Below, piece after piece: positions 18,130-59,352 of a DNA stretch of 64,000 nt. The notes under the pieces are model-generated. The model saw only the letters and a list, made by a program, of their open reading frames with translations. It made no database searches and was not told where the DNA came from. The stretch lies in NCBI GenBank assembly GCA_015062445.1, contig SUUQ01000002.1:23051-87050 (forward strand). Reading direction: 5' to 3'. The stretch comes from Alphaproteobacteria bacterium. GTDB lineage: Bacteria; Pseudomonadota; Alphaproteobacteria; Rs-D84. Position 1 is the first letter of the stretch. Every line of letters begins with the position of its first letter. The translations under genes were made by a program, and so were the position numbers.

Positions 18130-19370
18130 TTATTATCCCCATCAACAATTTGCGCTAAAAAAATTCCCCTCTCGGCGGGGTGGGGGTGCAGTGCTGGTCC
18201 CCAGCAACCACAATCCCTATTCATCGCCAATGACAAACATTACACATAAACCGGGAATACAGACAATCCCCACCCCCGTCATACCGGCGCAGGCCGGTAT
18301 CCATTGTGTTTTTCCCCACCCCCTCATGTCATCCCGTGGCTTGACCACGGGACCCAGGTGTATCCTTTTTTTCTTACCTTGACCACATAATTGGCAAGGT
18401 CTAAAACACCCCACCCCCTCATGTCATCCCGTGGCTGGACCACGGGACCCAGGTGTATACCTTTTTTTTCCCCCCCTCATGTCATCCCGTTTCTAGAACT
18501 GGCAATAATATACACATAATAATATTTTTGTTCAAATCTGATAAAACAATGATGCATTACCTGGGTTCCGTGGTCCAGCCACGGAATGACAAAACACTTA
18601 ACACATTTTATAAAACATAATTATCACCCAGAACTCCGTCATACCGGCATCGGACCACTCCCAGCCCCCGTCATACCGGCGCAGGCCGGTATCCATTGCA
18701 AGCCACCCAACCCCCACAAAAAAGAGTCGTGCAAAAAATTCCTCTCTCGGCGAGGTGGGGGTGCAGTGCTGGTCCCCAGCACCCACAATCCCTATTCATC
18801 GCCAATGACAAACATTACACATAAACCGGGAATACAAACAATCCCACCCCCGTCATACCGGCGCAGGCCGGTATCCATTGTGTTTTTTTCCCCCCCCTCA
18901 TGTCATCCCGTGGCTGGACCACGGGACCCAGGTGTATGCCTTTTTTTACTTCAACACCAAACAAAAAAAAACAACAAATGTAAAAACTCATGTCATCCCG
19001 TTTCTAGAACTGGCAATAATATACACATAATAATATTTTTGTTCAATCTCATAAAACAATGATGCATTACCTGGGTTCCGTGGTCAGGCCACGGAATGAC
19101 AAAACACTTAACACATTTTATAAAACATAATTATCACCCAGAAACCCGTCATACCGGCGCAGGCCGGTATCCATTGCAAGCCACCCAACCCCCACAAAAA
19201 AGAGCCGTTCAAAAAATTCCCCTCTCGGCGGGGGGGGGCAAAAAGCACCTTGCCATCCAACGCAAAAAAATCCATCAACTGGGGGGCTGGGCCAATATGC
19301 ATCGCCGGAAAAGTGGGAATACGCAATGCAATATCAAAACCCAGCCGCCCAGTTGATGGACCGGACCATG
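18130..19370. repeat. intergenic mosaic of nested palindromic MITE-like repeats (families A to D); contains no real genes
   Basis: Repeated modules: A cgtcataccggcgcaggccggtatccattg (18273, 18670, 18848, 19148); B ctcatgtcatcccgtggctggaccacgggacccaggtgtat (18330, 18413, 18895); C roughly 160-bp element (18477-18640, 18988-19145); D roughly 120-bp element (18155-18262, 18735-18838). Confidence 0.9.
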
Positions 19371-19374
19371 CGAT

Positions 19375-22248
19375 TTAGTCTATCGCATGGTATGTGGTGC
19401 CGTTGTATTTTACATTCAGTCCGCTGCCTGCACCAGCTGCCAGACTACCATAGCAAATCGTATCGTTCCACAGGACATTAATCGCCGGGGCTGTACGGGC
19501 AGATGTATACAGCGGTATCTGTAACCCTGTGCCAAGGTGGATGTGCGTAATGCCAGATTCGCAGAATTGGCCACACTGGTTATCTGATGTCAGATTATAC
19601 CCATCGTCACATTCCCACGGACACGTATTGGACGATGCGGTGCCGGTGTAATAACTGTTGTCGGGTTTGTTTGTGCATTCTTCACACCCCGGCGTATCGC
19701 TATAGGCATGAATATCAAAAGTTCCGATTTTGCACGTGTACGATTTAACCGGCTGATTACAATCTGTCGGTGTGCATGATGTATCGGTTGCAGACTTGTA
19801 ATCACGCCATTTGCACGTTCCCGGTGTACACGTGAGACAGGTATAAGATTCACTGTTTTCGGGTTGTGAACACGATAACTGGGAACCAGTGTTTGTTTTG
19901 GATTCATAGCAATATGCATCGCTGATACTGCCACCATCTGATGATGGGTATGCCGTTGGACATGCCGGGCATGTTGTGCCAGATACATAGTAATTTGCAC
20001 TGGCGGTAACGGTTTTTGGTTCTTTGATACAGGTTTCATTTGATGTGGTACCTGATGTGGTGCCGTTATAGTATTTTATGTACGTATCCCCTGTACATGA
20101 ACATGCGTTCCATTCCGTTACAGATGCACATCCCGATGGGACATCACCATTATTTTGTGTACAGCCACGTGTTATGTTTGTATAGCATGAATTAATGCTG
20201 GTGGCACCCGCAGAACTGTTTGGGTATCCACTGGGGCATGATGTACGATTATTATCCCCGGGGCAATAGTATCCAGCTTCGCATTTGGCACATAAATCAC
20301 CACTTTTATAATACCCGGCTGAACATGTTACAGTCCACGGACCATACGACCAATCACCACAACTGGACGTACCAGTGCATGCCGATGACGATGTCGAGCA
20401 TGCAGGACTGCTGCTGCGATAGCATGTACGTGATTTTGAACGTGTACGTGAACCGCCGGTTATTGTTTCTGTATCGGTACCACTGTCACCATATGACACA
20501 CCTGTACACGATGCACATGATGAACCAGATTGATAATACCCCGCATCACAGCACCATGGGCAATTGCTTTCCACTGCGTACATGCTTGATGGTGTTGAAT
20601 AACTGGTATAATATGAATTCGCGGGTTTATTTGTACAGGCAGTACATGAATTGTACCAATTATTATACCATATCGGGTCGGACGCATAGTATCCAGTACG
20701 ACACCATGAATAGTATGTAAAGTTATAGCCCGATGGTCCATTATAACATTGTGTTTCGTTCAAATATTGTACACGTGTAGAATCACTTAAATACCAATCA
20801 CAAATACAGTCAGACGAACTGGCACCATGGGTATAGTCGGACCAACTGCCACTGGATAAACTGTAGATACTGCTGGGGGTTGGGGAGCCGGATTTAACAG
20901 TTGTTGAACATGCGGCCCGATGTGTCCCGCCGGTACAGAAATATCCACTGCCACAGGCCGAGCATGACGATTGACCCGTTGATGTATTATAATACCCGGG
21001 GGGGCACCAATTTCGTCCCTGGACACCGCCATTATACGTCCATGTGCCACCGGGACAGTAATAGCCCGCCTCGCACAATGAACATGATGTTCCATTCAAA
21101 TAGTATCCAGCTGAACAGCTGTATGATTTTGGTTTTTTTGTTGCGGTTGTACATGTACATGAAGAACTGGCCACACTGCATCCGCCAAAGTTGGTACAGG
21201 AACCATAGCTGCCACAGGAACCCCAACTGCCACAGGACCCCCAACTGCCACAGGAACCCCAGCTGCCACAGGAACCGAAACTGCCACAGGCCCCCCAATT
21301 GCCACAGGAACCATTCGTCCATTCACTGTATGATGTAGCAGTTGACGAGCACCCCGAACACGTGTCACCAGCCGAATAACAACCATCTGTATAAGAACCT
21401 TTACAGTCTACGTATTTTGTACGACTGCGAGAGTATGTTCCATATTGTGTGCCATACTTGGTACCATAACGTGTTCCATAACGGGTGCCATATTGTGTAC
21501 CGTATTTTGTACCATATTTGGTACCAGAACATGTAGTGGCATTATACGTACAATCATATCCTGTTGGGCACGGTTCATATACACCGCAACTGACACTGCA
21601 CGATTCGCTGCAACTGGTGCTGCATCCCTGGCTGCAGGTCTCAGAGCAAGTCTCTGAACACGACGCACTGCATCCCTGGCTGCACGACAGACCGCTTTCG
21701 GTTTCTGTTGTTGTACTTAAACGCGATGAATTGCTGCGGGTGTTACAGTGTGTTGTACATGTTGGAGAATATGAACAACTGTCGGGGTAATATGCCTGGA
21801 TGGCATCGGGGGTATACGTATATCCGCCCGATTGGTATGATGAACAACTTTTATAACATGTACTGTAATCGGTGCCTGAACAAGAACCATCATATCCAAC
21901 CGATTCGCCGCAATCACATAAGTCCACCAGCCCCCCTTCGCAACATCCTGTTTTCGTATTACATGTTTTACCAAGTATACAATCAATATCAGATGTGCAT
22001 CCAATACAGTCTAATCCTACAGTGTCGCGTTGGCATGTGCGGCTTGTCCGGTCACAATATTCATCAGATTCACATTGGCTGTCGCGCAGACAGGATGCGC
22101 CAATCAATGCGGATGCCGGTGTTGATATTATTGCCGGCACCAAGAACGAAAACGCAACCAGAACCACCTGCAGTGTCGTAAACAAACGGTGGTTTAAAAA
22201 CAACATAACGGAGAGACAAAATGTTGCGGAAAAGTGGGAAAAATTCAA
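19375..22248 (-). CDS. giant (957 aa) secreted, extremely Cys/Ser/Thr/Gly/Tyr-rich repeat protein with eukaryote-like (ephrin-receptor/GCC2_GCC3/TNFR-like) C-x2-C...GYYC modules; the start may be the internal Met at 22206
   Basis: Signal peptide ...VVLVAFSFLVPAIISTPASA; modules such as CSAGYYLNGTSCSLCEAGYYCPGG and CTNKPANSYYT..CPWCCDAGYY; low-complexity runs (YGTK)x8, (GSCGSW)x6 and SCSETCSETCSQGCS encoded by 12-bp and 18-bp DNA tandem repeats. Confidence 0.75.
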   Translation of the reverse strand: MNFSHFSATFCLSVMLFLNHRLFTTLQVVLVAFSFLVPAIISTPASALIGASCLRDSQCESDEYCDRTSRTCQRDTVGLDCIGCTSDIDCILGKTCNTKTGCCEGGLVDLCDCGESVGYDGSCSGTDYSTCYKSCSSYQSGGYTYTPDAIQAYYPDSCSYSPTCTTHCNTRSNSSRLSTTTETESGLSCSQGCSASCSETCSETCSQGCSTSCSESCSVSCGVYEPCPTGYDCTYNATTCSGTKYGTKYGTQYGTRYGTRYGTKYGTQYGTYSRSRTKYVDCKGSYTDGCYSAGDTCSGCSSTATSYSEWTNGSCGNWGACGSFGSCGSWGSCGSWGSCGSWGSCGSYGSCTNFGGCSVASSSCTCTTATKKPKSYSCSAGYYLNGTSCSLCEAGYYCPGGTWTYNGGVQGRNWCPPGYYNTSTGQSSCSACGSGYFCTGGTHRAACSTTVKSGSPTPSSIYSLSSGSWSDYTHGASSSDCICDWYLSDSTRVQYLNETQCYNGPSGYNFTYYSWCRTGYYASDPIWYNNWYNSCTACTNKPANSYYTSYSTPSSMYAVESNCPWCCDAGYYQSGSSCASCTGVSYGDSGTDTETITGGSRTRSKSRTCYRSSSPACSTSSSACTGTSSCGDWSYGPWTVTCSAGYYKSGDLCAKCEAGYYCPGDNNRTSCPSGYPNSSAGATSINSCYTNITRGCTQNNGDVPSGCASVTEWNACSCTGDTYIKYYNGTTSGTTSNETCIKEPKTVTASANYYVSGTTCPACPTAYPSSDGGSISDAYCYESKTNTGSQLSCSQPENSESYTCLTCTPGTCKWRDYKSATDTSCTPTDCNQPVKSYTCKIGTFDIHAYSDTPGCEECTNKPDNSYYTGTASSNTCPWECDDGYNLTSDNQCGQFCESGITHIHLGTGLQIPLYTSARTAPAINVLWNDTICYGSLAAGAGSGLNVKYNGTTYHAID

Positions 22249-53667: not shown

Positions 53668-53699
53668 CAGTCCCCCAATTGGGGGATTTTTAATTTCTG

Positions 53700-54300
53700 C
53701 CGTGGCAATCCAGTAAATAGAAACCATACCCTCCACACTCATGTCATCCCGTGGCTGGACCACGAGACCCAGGTGTATACCTTTTCTTACTTTGTCATTG
53801 CAGGGCGAACCGTGGCAATCCAGTCTATTATTCTGCCTTGCCCCTCTGTCCTCATACCCATGCAGACCACCCCCTCATGTCATCCCGTTTCTAGAACTGG
53901 CAATAATATACACATAATAATATTTTTGTTCAAATCTGATAAAACAATGATGCATTACCTGGGTTCCGTGGTCCAGCCACGGAATGACAAAACACTTAAC
54001 ACATTTTATAAAATATAATTTTTATCCAGAACCCCGTCATACCGGCATCGGACCACTCCCACCCCCCGTCATACCGGCGCAGGCCGGTATCCATTGCAAG
54101 CCACCCAACCCCCACAAAAAAGAGCCGTTCAAAAAATTCCCCTCTCTGTGGGGAACATGCAGTGCCGGGGTGGTCTCAATCCCACCCCCGTCATACCGGC
54201 GCAGGCCGGTATCCATTGTGTTTTTCCCCCCCATGTCATCCCGTGGCTGGACCACGGGACCCAGGTGTATGCTTTTTTTTACTTCAACACCAAACAAAAA
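53700..54300. repeat. second intergenic cluster of the same palindromic MITE-like repeat families (A, B, C)
   Basis: Family B at 53737 and 54229; family C (roughly 160 bp) at 53873-54035; family A at 54058 and 54185; same orientation as the 18.1-19.4 kb cluster. Confidence 0.9.
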
Positions 54301-54336
54301 AAATCCCGCCAAATCGGCGGGATAATAACACTTTTA

Positions 54337-58560: not shown

Positions 58561-59107
58561 AAAAAATGTAAAAAATACCGCCCCATCGGCCATTTTTTCG
58601 CCGCAAACCCGCAGAAATCCGCCACTTTTTTCATTTTTTGATACCAGAGCAGGGCAAAAATCACATTTTTTGGCATTTTTTACCACTTCTAAGCATTTTT
58701 TTCAGCCCACATCTGTACCCACACAATAAACAGATAAATTAAATTATAAGTCTGATTACAAAAAGATATATTGCACTTTAACAGTAAAATATTAACTTAA
58801 ACAAAATCAGAAAACATCACACAACTTTACAACAAAGTTTTATTCAAACCAACGTTCATAAACCAATCCAAAGATATAAAACCACAACAGTATTGGCCAA
58901 AAGAAGAACCATAAAACAAAAAACAAAATTCTTTTCATATCGAAACACCATCTTTGTTATAATATAATTATATCAGAAATAATTCATATACACAAATTAA
59001 CCAAATCGATTTTCAGCGACCTGGGCATACAAATATACGTTCAGCACAATTCATCATCCCCACAGTGCATGTACACCAGAACAATTTTAACAGCCACGAC
59101 TCACCAT

Positions 59108-59352
59108 TGGCGATATATTATGTACACATTTGCGTATGCCCAGCACAGCAAACAATTCAGCGATATTATGTATACGTTTGCGTGCACCCACAGCACACCA
59201 AACTAAAAATTAGCCCTCACATCAAACAATTTAGCGATATTATGTATACGTTTGCGTGTGCCCCAGCAAACCAAACTTAAAAATTAGCGATATTATGTAT
59301 ACGTTTGTGTGTGCCCCAGCACACCAAACTATACATAATATACATTATGCGC
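59108..59352. repeat. four tandem iteron-like repeats of 55-70 bp (core gcgatattatgtatacgtttgcgtgtgccccagcacaccaaact) within a 1.1-kb A+C-skewed non-coding region
   Basis: Unit starts at about 59110, 59160, 59233, 59286; the last unit ends in a partial inverted copy (tatacataatata). Confidence 0.85.

Follow-up and report, generated by a model that had tools for sequence, protein, structure and literature searches.

The 64,000-nt stretch of DNA analysed here (hereafter the window), from an uncultured, gut-associated Alphaproteobacteria bacterium (Rs-D84; assembly GCA_015062445.1, contig SUUQ01000002.1, positions 23,051 to 87,050 of the forward strand), contains two intergenic loci crowded with short hairpin repeats. 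These are very probably repetitive extragenic palindromes (REPs) of the CGTC class, arranged in a mosaic that resembles the intergenic mosaic elements of Neisseria (NIMEs). They add a new host to a kind of element that is already known and are not a new class, the mosaic being comparable to the NIME arrays of Neisseria or to the bacterial interspersed mosaic element arrays of E. coli. Locus 1 (18137-19240) is found in the spacer that runs from the stop codon of a 957-aa open reading frame (ORF) to the start of a DUF2155 gene, the two being on the - strand; locus 2 (53728-54300) separates rpiB from leuS, which are convergent. For positions 18130-19370, a first-pass annotation made from the letters and an ORF list alone had proposed at least four palindromic families (A to D), similar to miniature inverted-repeat transposable elements (MITEs). 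Repeats do tile this range, save for 19264-19361, which is a separate hairpin and probably a terminator (element E, see below); the nature of the families turned out to be different.

As defined by Di Nocera, De Gregorio and Rocco (2013; PMC3733652), REPs of the CGTC superfamily begin with a CGTC tag, sometimes TGTC or CCTC, and end with a CCA tail; between them are a stem of 8 bp (families 1 and 2) or 9 bp (families 3 and 4), with A-T pairs at its first two positions, and a loop that measures 4 nt in family 1 and 5 nt in families 2 to 4. They form mainly tags-outward (head-to-head, HH) dimers, tandem pairs being negligible, with clustered exceptions in Neisseria and Wolbachia. They are found mostly in Alphaproteobacteria and mostly in free-living bacteria, and have no dedicated transposase. 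CGTC-1 includes the Neisseria dRS3 repeat and the Rickettsia palindromic element RPE-6 of R. conorii, and CGTC-4 includes RPE-4 of R. conorii and the units of Wolbachia wMel and wRi (PMC3733652). The copy counts given below for this lineage cover the window and related contigs; L numbers designate contigs other than that of the window.

Anatomy of the tagged hairpins

Family A (CGTCATACCGGCGCAGGCCGGTATCCATTG) is represented by six exact copies of a 30-mer, all on the + strand (starting at 18277, 18669, 18851, 19147, 54067 and 54189), for a chance expectation of 0. The 27-nt unit reads CGTC / ATACCGGC / GCAG / GCCGGTAT / CCA, i.e. a tag, a perfect 8-bp stem starting with A-T and closed by a 4-nt loop, and a tail. 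Its hairpin has a folding energy of -13.9 kcal/mol as RNA and -8.6 as DNA, and no shuffled sequence folds as well. On every published point family A fits a CGTC-1 unit. Family B is a 40-mer with five direct copies at one mismatch or less (18324, 18419, 18898, 53739 and 54231; chance expectation 0) and three inverted ones (18562-18591, 19072-19101 and 53960-53989). The 30-nt unit within it, TGTC / ATCCCGTGG / CTGGA / CCACGGGAC / CCA, has nine stem positions and a 5-nt loop, the latter being CTGGA, CTTGA or CCTGA across the window; it folds at -11.0 kcal/mol as DNA (z -2.9). It fits the 9/5 type (CGTC-3/4), with one deviation in the stem that is weighed further below.

The stems vary but remain paired. 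The arms ATCCCGTGG/CCACGGGAC of the direct B units become ATTCCGTGG/CCACGGAAC in the inverted ones, and the relatives contribute the further compensatory variants ATCCTGTGG/CCACAGGAT and ATGCTTTGG/CCAAAGCAT: the units are short hairpins whose stem complementarity has been kept by compensatory changes. The tag is CGTC in all six A units and TGTC in all eight B units, and the CCA tail is present in 14 out of 14. When the window was scanned for a tag followed by stem, loop and stem, with at most one stem mismatch, 13 units were found, versus about 2 in shuffled sequence; the 14th, the B unit at 53742, has two stem mismatches and hence falls beyond the limit of the scan. No tagged unit within that limit was found in the 64 kb outside the two intergenic loci, to which all 14 are confined; the same modules are found in at least three further contexts among related contigs.

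Rickettsia palindromic elements are often inserted in frame inside protein-coding genes. Nothing of the kind was seen here, the units being restricted to the two spacers. The likeness to these elements, put forward in the first-pass annotation, is nevertheless real inasmuch as RPE-6 and RPE-4 are themselves CGTC-1 and CGTC-4 REPs (PMC3733652). The other features shared with the CGTC class are the position between convergent or co-directional genes, the presence of two families in one genome, the clustering known from Neisseria and Wolbachia, and the lack of a linked transposase. The host differs in lying outside the survey of PMC3733652.

A link to Wolbachia also came from Rfam. At gathering thresholds no family was found at either locus, and the sub-threshold matches to plant and animal miRNA precursors are meaningless, being due to the long inverted pair. 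The pair formed by B and inverted B aligned, in addition, to the long hairpin model of the Wolbachia small RNA WsnRNA46 (RF02625; E ~1e-6) through the similarity of its arms (TGTCAT..GG..GAC.C.GG.A.CCAG). The score of 38.6 bits is well under the gathering score of 65.3, and the interior of the window pair is unrelated and twice as long. The match, significant although sub-threshold, reflects common REP arms and not a homologous small RNA gene; it is an independent pointer to a relationship between family B and the Wolbachia units.

Organisation and turnover of the two arrays

The features of the two loci are listed below with their window coordinates, strand and basis.

18137-18276, +: module D copy 1, 89% identical to 18712-18851
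18277-18303, +: family A unit 1 (CGTC-1 REP); exact copy, hairpin fold
18327-18356, +: family B unit 1 (TGTC tag, 9-position stem, 5-nt loop, CCA); copy scan
18422-18451, +: family B unit 2; tags-outward pair with 18562-18591
18476-18591, +: family C copy 1; inverted B at 18562-18591; 18449-18587 missing from strain L121
18637-18648, +: A' half unit reduced to tag and left arm (CGTCATACCGGC), with the next A 32 nt downstream; read from the sequence
18669-18695, +: family A unit 2; exact copy
18699-18760, +: module T copy 1, after A; small terminator-like hairpin on the - strand
18712-18851, +: module D copy 2; repeat comparison
18851-18877, +: family A unit 3; exact copy
18901-18930, +: family B unit 3; copy scan
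18987-19101, +: family C copy 2, ending in the inverted B of 19072-19101
19147-19173, +: family A unit 4; exact copy
19177-19238, +: module T copy 2; repeat comparison
19264-19361, -: element E, hairpin with a 21-bp stem, outside the REP mosaic
53669-53688, +: rpiB intrinsic terminator, boundary of locus 2; terminator prediction
53742-53771, +: family B unit 4; one extra stem mismatch
53793-53822, +: degenerate third tagged unit (TGTC ATTGC...GCAAT CCA), with a right-half copy at 53700-53713
53874-53989, +: family C copy 3, ending in the inverted B of 53960-53989
54035-54046, +: A' half unit; read from the sequence
54067-54093, +: family A unit 5; exact copy
54097-54158, +: module T copy 3; repeat comparison
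54189-54215, +: family A unit 6; exact copy
54234-54263, +: family B unit 5; copy scan
54303-54323, -: leuS intrinsic terminator, boundary of locus 2; terminator prediction

Locus 1 is mostly a tandem duplication of a composite of 480-575 nt, and blocks of 140-284 nt are common to both loci; the largest, of 284 nt (C plus about 170 nt), is 96% identical between them. The spacers between the 14 units range from 18 to 188 nt and are poorer in G+C than the units (0.43 versus 0.65), so that the 24-nt G+C profile spans 0.12-0.83, with some additional peaks within module D. Family C, described in the first-pass annotation as an element of about 160 bp, measures about 116 nt. Its three copies, the first 60 nt of which are 100% identical, each have a complete inverted B unit at the right end; in copy 1 this is preceded by the mere head of a B unit (TGTCATCCCGT, 18480-18490) and by an AT-rich core of 83 nt. 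It had been said to end in the left half and the inverted right half of B, as if a B site had been split by an insertion. In its simple form this was rejected: the right end is a whole inverted B, and no B remainder in direct orientation follows C. The nesting as such is plausible in view of contigs L121 and L130 (see below). C never occurs alone, the same stretch of about 170 nt always adjoining it on the right. Family D (140 nt, two copies) also occurs in L121, L130 and L132. C and D, proposed as autonomous families, are best seen as spacer modules, or composite blocks, between hairpins.

This layout recalls the NIMEs (Parkhill 2000, Bentley 2007), in which dRS3 hairpins flank RS modules of 19-214 bp and create a wave in G+C, and in which array length and content vary between strains at syntenic sites (PMC1797815). 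Common to both are short hairpin arrays split by repeat modules, here of 18-188 nt, an alternation of high and low G+C, strain differences in length and content at syntenic sites and, for one of the arrays of the window, the proximity of a putative surface-protein gene. The differences are that two unit types, A and B, alternate here where NIMEs have one, that the spacer modules are unrelated, lineage-specific sequences, and that the arrays known to date are but a handful, whereas dRS3 copies number in the hundreds in Neisseria. Neither the dRS3 consensus ATTCCCN8GGGAAT nor the RS families of Neisseria were found, the A stem being ATACCGGC. The window array works like a NIME without being a member of that family. 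An irregular spacing, several unit types and the absence of cas genes led us to reject, on inspection, a CRISPR-like array.

Comparison of close strains revealed that array content shifts by indels whose ends lie in hairpin arms. Strain L121 is devoid of 139 nt at window positions 18449-18587, which hold most of family C; the junction falls within the (T/C)CCGTGG arms of two B units, of which a single hybrid hairpin is left. Similarly, 32 nt bounded by two CGTCATACCGGC heads are missing from the second tandem copy at locus 1, which has no A' half unit. In contig L130 (1101-1150), about 35 nt are found inserted in the loop of a B hairpin (tcccgtgg / ttcacacttcg...aaggca / agccacggga). In the relative L097, a mosaic of 600 nt containing five units with different stems takes the place of what is a plain spacer of 338 nt in the window, which indicates that the arrays are a trait of the lineage and that their positions are not fixed; L097 also has a unit, ATTGCGAG...GCAATCCAG, that resembles the degenerate third tagged unit of the window at 53793-53822.

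The modules recur in at least five genomic contexts of this gut-associated alphaproteobacterial lineage: besides the two loci, they are present next to an OmpA-family gene (L124), a tRNA gene and rpmG-rplU-rpmA (L130), and adk-rpsA-polA (L132-134), genes that are all absent from the window. A mere local duplication, i.e. repeats restricted to the two loci, does not account for this, which speaks for a dispersed family, as foreseen in the first-pass annotation. Four assemblies of independent origin carry locus 2 with 100% identity, while another three contigs stop within it, one of them precisely where the 284-nt block has its edge. L001 (~98% identical) has different DNA straight after the rpiB terminator, and L124 follows the window until 467 nt past leuS and continues with another A/B segment and genes not present in the window. 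The resulting gene joins, leuS with the OmpA-family gene (L124:6864-7030) and rpiB with element E (L001:8112-8148), are unlike those of the window: they are either real rearrangements with breakpoints in arrays, or chimeras that arose when metagenomes were assembled across repeats. Exact scans of metagenome contigs for a C-specific 30-mer and for B gave 0 matches, which is uninformative and no sign of absence, given that such scans miss sequences present in JGI contigs (e.g. 3300029305 Ga0307249_10003290) and that the JGI contig L123 holds both.

The family A core in other genomes

Family A is not specific to this lineage. An exact scan for its 26-nt core, with one genome per species and totals that are lower bounds, gave at least 119 stretches in at least 94 assemblies, for 3e-4 matches expected by chance. 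Among the assemblies listed, 10 are cultured isolates (Microbulbifer, Sphingomonas, Formivibrio). The taxa include Alpha-, Beta-, Gamma- and Zetaproteobacteria, Desulfobacterota (Smithella/Syntrophobacter), Chloroflexota (Dehalococcoidia), Elusimicrobia and Binatia, which illustrates the reach of one exact sequence type across phyla. The flanks of the core are unrelated between lineages; the conserved unit is therefore the tagged hairpin alone. By contrast, the spacer modules C, D and T had no matches outside the gut-associated lineage.

The 852 kb surrounding the A-core matches contained 243 perfect tagged hairpins, versus 0 in shuffled sequence, with 37 distinct fully complementary stems. 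Most of them (227 of 243) carry the CCA tail, and the loops are mainly GCAG, GAAG or GAAA. Neighbouring units are disposed tags-outward in 60 cases, tags-inward in 10 and in tandem in 15, and the two stems differ in 55 of the 60 tags-outward pairs. Such an arrangement is the one published for CGTC REPs, the core itself being mostly part of inverted heterodimers. In two groups the core was found embedded in longer, lineage-specific repeats. In Gallionellaceae (L021, L044, L049, L054, L061, L077, L105 and L111) the identical CGTC-1 core is followed by gatgattaacaaattcccacgtcagtgggacaa, within a longer repeat of their own; on one Dehalococcoidia chromosome, OY762444 (L031, L069, L088 and L091), it lies between ...ggcaaaccc and ggattccttgcc... 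Only the core is common across phyla.

These data bear on the link that had been drawn with obligate intracellular alphaproteobacteria. CGTC REPs are mostly from free-living bacteria, the A core spans several phyla, and the nearest relatives of the source organism are gut metagenome-assembled genomes (MAGs): an intracellular lifestyle is not needed to account for the repeats. At the species level the nearest genome is a MAG from roe-deer caecum (78% nucleotide identity over 4.4 kb; RpoD 91% identical), and Candidatus Enterousia and other gut MAGs have the same ATCCATTG tail variant. The genes of the window form an ordinary alphaproteobacterial housekeeping set, GcrA and TrcR among them. Recognising CGTC REPs for what they are avoids their annotation as genes, MITEs or Rickettsia-like signs of intracellular life.

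Rival readings, mobilisation and neighbouring sequence

Several observations weigh against the identification as CGTC REPs in a NIME-like mosaic. In the window the A units are all direct, without a single inverted dimer, three A-then-B tandem pairs occur where the published proportion of tandem pairs is negligible, and the tags-outward pairs formed by B units are seen only across spacers of 110-188 nt. The predominance of tags-outward dimers is thus not found here, although it is a typical organisation and not a strict criterion of the class; on all three counts the local organisation is unusual. At its first stem position B invariably has an A.C mismatch, which leaves eight positions paired and breaks the published A-T rule. 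No transposase or recombinase was found in the 64-kb window and, save for five OmpA-like ORFs, no recurrent gene family within 2.5 kb of the A core across the 119 or more loci. Finally, homology breakpoints were not in excess at units (0.37 versus 0.41 at random positions), a crude measure inasmuch as BLAST extends through shared units; the case for recombination at hairpin arms consequently comes down to the two resolved indels.

The MITE reading, in which A, B, C and D would be four non-autonomous transposons derived from insertion sequences of the lineage and nested by successive insertions, appears improbable. MITEs are characterised by terminal inverted repeats of 15-30 bp, target-site duplications and independent copies with varied flanks. 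Units A and B, with their length of 27-30 nt and their tag-stem-loop-tail anatomy, lack terminal inverted repeats; moreover, at least 94 assemblies from several phyla share one identical A core, amid flanks that are unrelated. The terminal inverted repeats of C (TGTCATCCCGT / ACGGAATGACA) are imperfect and 11 nt long, but its right flank is the same in all copies and it did not occur as an independent unit. No target-site duplication was seen for A, B or C, and the window holds no parent insertion sequence or transposase. The restriction of C, D and T to the lineage and the insertion in the B loop of L130 are in favour of transposition, as is the absence from L121 of the 139-nt segment that holds C; the last is equally well explained by a deletion between two direct arms of 7-8 nt.

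That the hairpins are selected RNA or DNA signals (terminators, stabilisers of mRNA 3' ends or a small RNA gene like WsnRNA46) is unlikely. Both loci do lie downstream of genes, weak terminator-like scores were obtained for three A units that precede TGTGTTTTT, module T adds its - strand hairpin, every C copy has a promoter-like match in its AT-rich core, and there is the WsnRNA46 match, itself limited to REP arms. However, the flanking genes have signals of their own outside the arrays: strong terminators adjoin the stop codons of rpiB and leuS, and the DUF2155 gene has a promoter-like site at 18115-18087. Moreover, the weak A 'terminators' of locus 1 are on the strand opposite to the genes, and the variation in content between near-identical strains makes a fixed function less likely. 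Genuine terminators and promoters border the arrays, which occupy the permissive DNA in between. The 957-aa gene is probably terminated by element E (19361-19264, - strand), a 98-nt hairpin without Rfam match whose 21-bp stem folds at -28 kcal/mol as DNA (z -5.8): because it starts 13 nt past the stop codon and is followed by T7, we set aside a MITE for a terminator hairpin foreign to the REP mosaic. An identical copy of element E (L001:8149-8246) ends contig L001 right after rpiB, oriented as for a convergent gene, and a diverged one (L130:~200-295) follows a paralogue or orthologue of the 957-aa gene.

A distinctly unlikely variant, modelled on a hypothesis published for Neisseria (PMC1797815), is that the arrays are kept as recombination substrates which speed the allelic exchange of an adjacent variable surface-protein gene. 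The 957-aa ORF next to locus 1 (19375-22248, - strand), directly upstream of the array, is rich in Cys, Ser, Thr and Gly, internally repetitive (18-nt tandem repeats at 21178-21321, encoding GSCGSW... and GTKYGT...) and without Pfam family; the product is possibly a variable surface or secreted protein. A diverged 3' end of this gene lies beside another array in L130, and the junctions of L001 and L124 depart from the window exactly at arrays. Against this, locus 2 is between two housekeeping genes, rpiB and leuS, there is no breakpoint enrichment at units, and the two junctions may be assembly chimeras at repeats.

Practically no credence can be given to the idea that the ORFs of 86-158 aa called in the arrays are real small proteins, or the region an assembly artefact. 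Gene callers do predict such ORFs, three of which (158, 86 and 113 aa) begin with MTKHLTHFIK. None has a Pfam match, and their relatives in protein databases amount to five clusters, all from these same repeat modules; they pointed to new loci but are too few for copies to be counted. The 32-nt indel between copies puts an end to the common frame after 16 residues, and there are several non-synonymous changes near the start (HNYHPEL versus YNFYPEP). The coding reading was rejected: these ORFs are artefacts of the repeats, as the first-pass annotation had it. As for a misassembly, the mosaic is 100% identical in the four independent assemblies, which come from different samples. Arrays of this type yield spurious ORFs and break metagenome assemblies, and may be points of rearrangement between strains.

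For CGTC REPs in a NIME-like mosaic, the following course of events can be proposed. Once seeded, arrays would grow, shrink and swap blocks as their many short hairpin arms, direct or inverted, slip or recombine with one another, with homologous recombination also exchanging blocks between arrays. The first arrival at new sites and the spread between phyla would most likely depend on an unlinked, trans-acting enzyme recognising the tag plus hairpin in single-stranded DNA, candidates being an HUH/Y1 transposase of the RAYT (REP-associated tyrosine transposase) kind, or a recombinase of the IS110 type, similar to the phage recombinase acting on dRS3 in Neisseria (PMC3733652, PMC1797815). A benefit to the host, such as protection of RNA 3' ends or recombination hot spots beside a variable surface-protein gene, would at most be a secondary possibility.

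We advance trans-acting mobilisation tentatively, by analogy with that recombinase and with the GTAG-type REPs, and REPINs, that are associated with RAYT transposases (Nunvar 2010; Bertels and Rainey 2011; see the summary in PMC3733652). Both kinds are short, tagged, intergenic hairpins, often in inverted pairs that form a larger hairpin, and are presumed substrates as single-stranded DNA. The tag is here CGTC or TGTC instead of GTAG, and no RAYT is flanked by units in the window or found beside the copies in the 94 or more genomes: the analogy is plausible, and the units are not members of the GTAG class. A bolder proposal is that the 27-nt CGTC-1 unit is actively spreading, or universally recognised, through as yet undiscovered, unlinked mobilising or copying machinery. 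It is suggested by an identical unit that at least 94 genomes have in common, in each case amid flanks that are unrelated or specific to the lineage and without a transposase beside it, and we hold it to be rather doubtful. If it were true, this gut population, with its presence/absence differences between strains that end in hairpin arms, would be a natural system for catching the machinery, and the arrays a second, independent case of the NIME type outside Neisseria. The question of how CGTC REPs are made and moved gains, at any rate, a lineage with NIME-like arrays and visible turnover at the strain level.

A few other repeats were noticed. In L130 (1285-1610), shortly after the B hairpin with the loop insertion, a duplicated tRNA fragment and two copies of another small hairpin repeat (gtcccacttcgcca(a/g)ggcttcgtgggac) precede a tRNA gene. 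In the window, the last 17 nt of tRNA-Ser(GCT) and about 14 nt downstream (365-395) are repeated 177 nt further on (542-572), each copy being followed by a different small hairpin; this repeat may be the scar of the attachment sites of an integrated element. The spacer next to mscL (59106-59341) consists of about two copies of a 74-nt unit (four 50-nt sub-copies) and an inverted 22-nt copy. The small ORFs that gene callers place there differ by strain (L122 versus L125/L126), and this spacer may be variable between strains as well.

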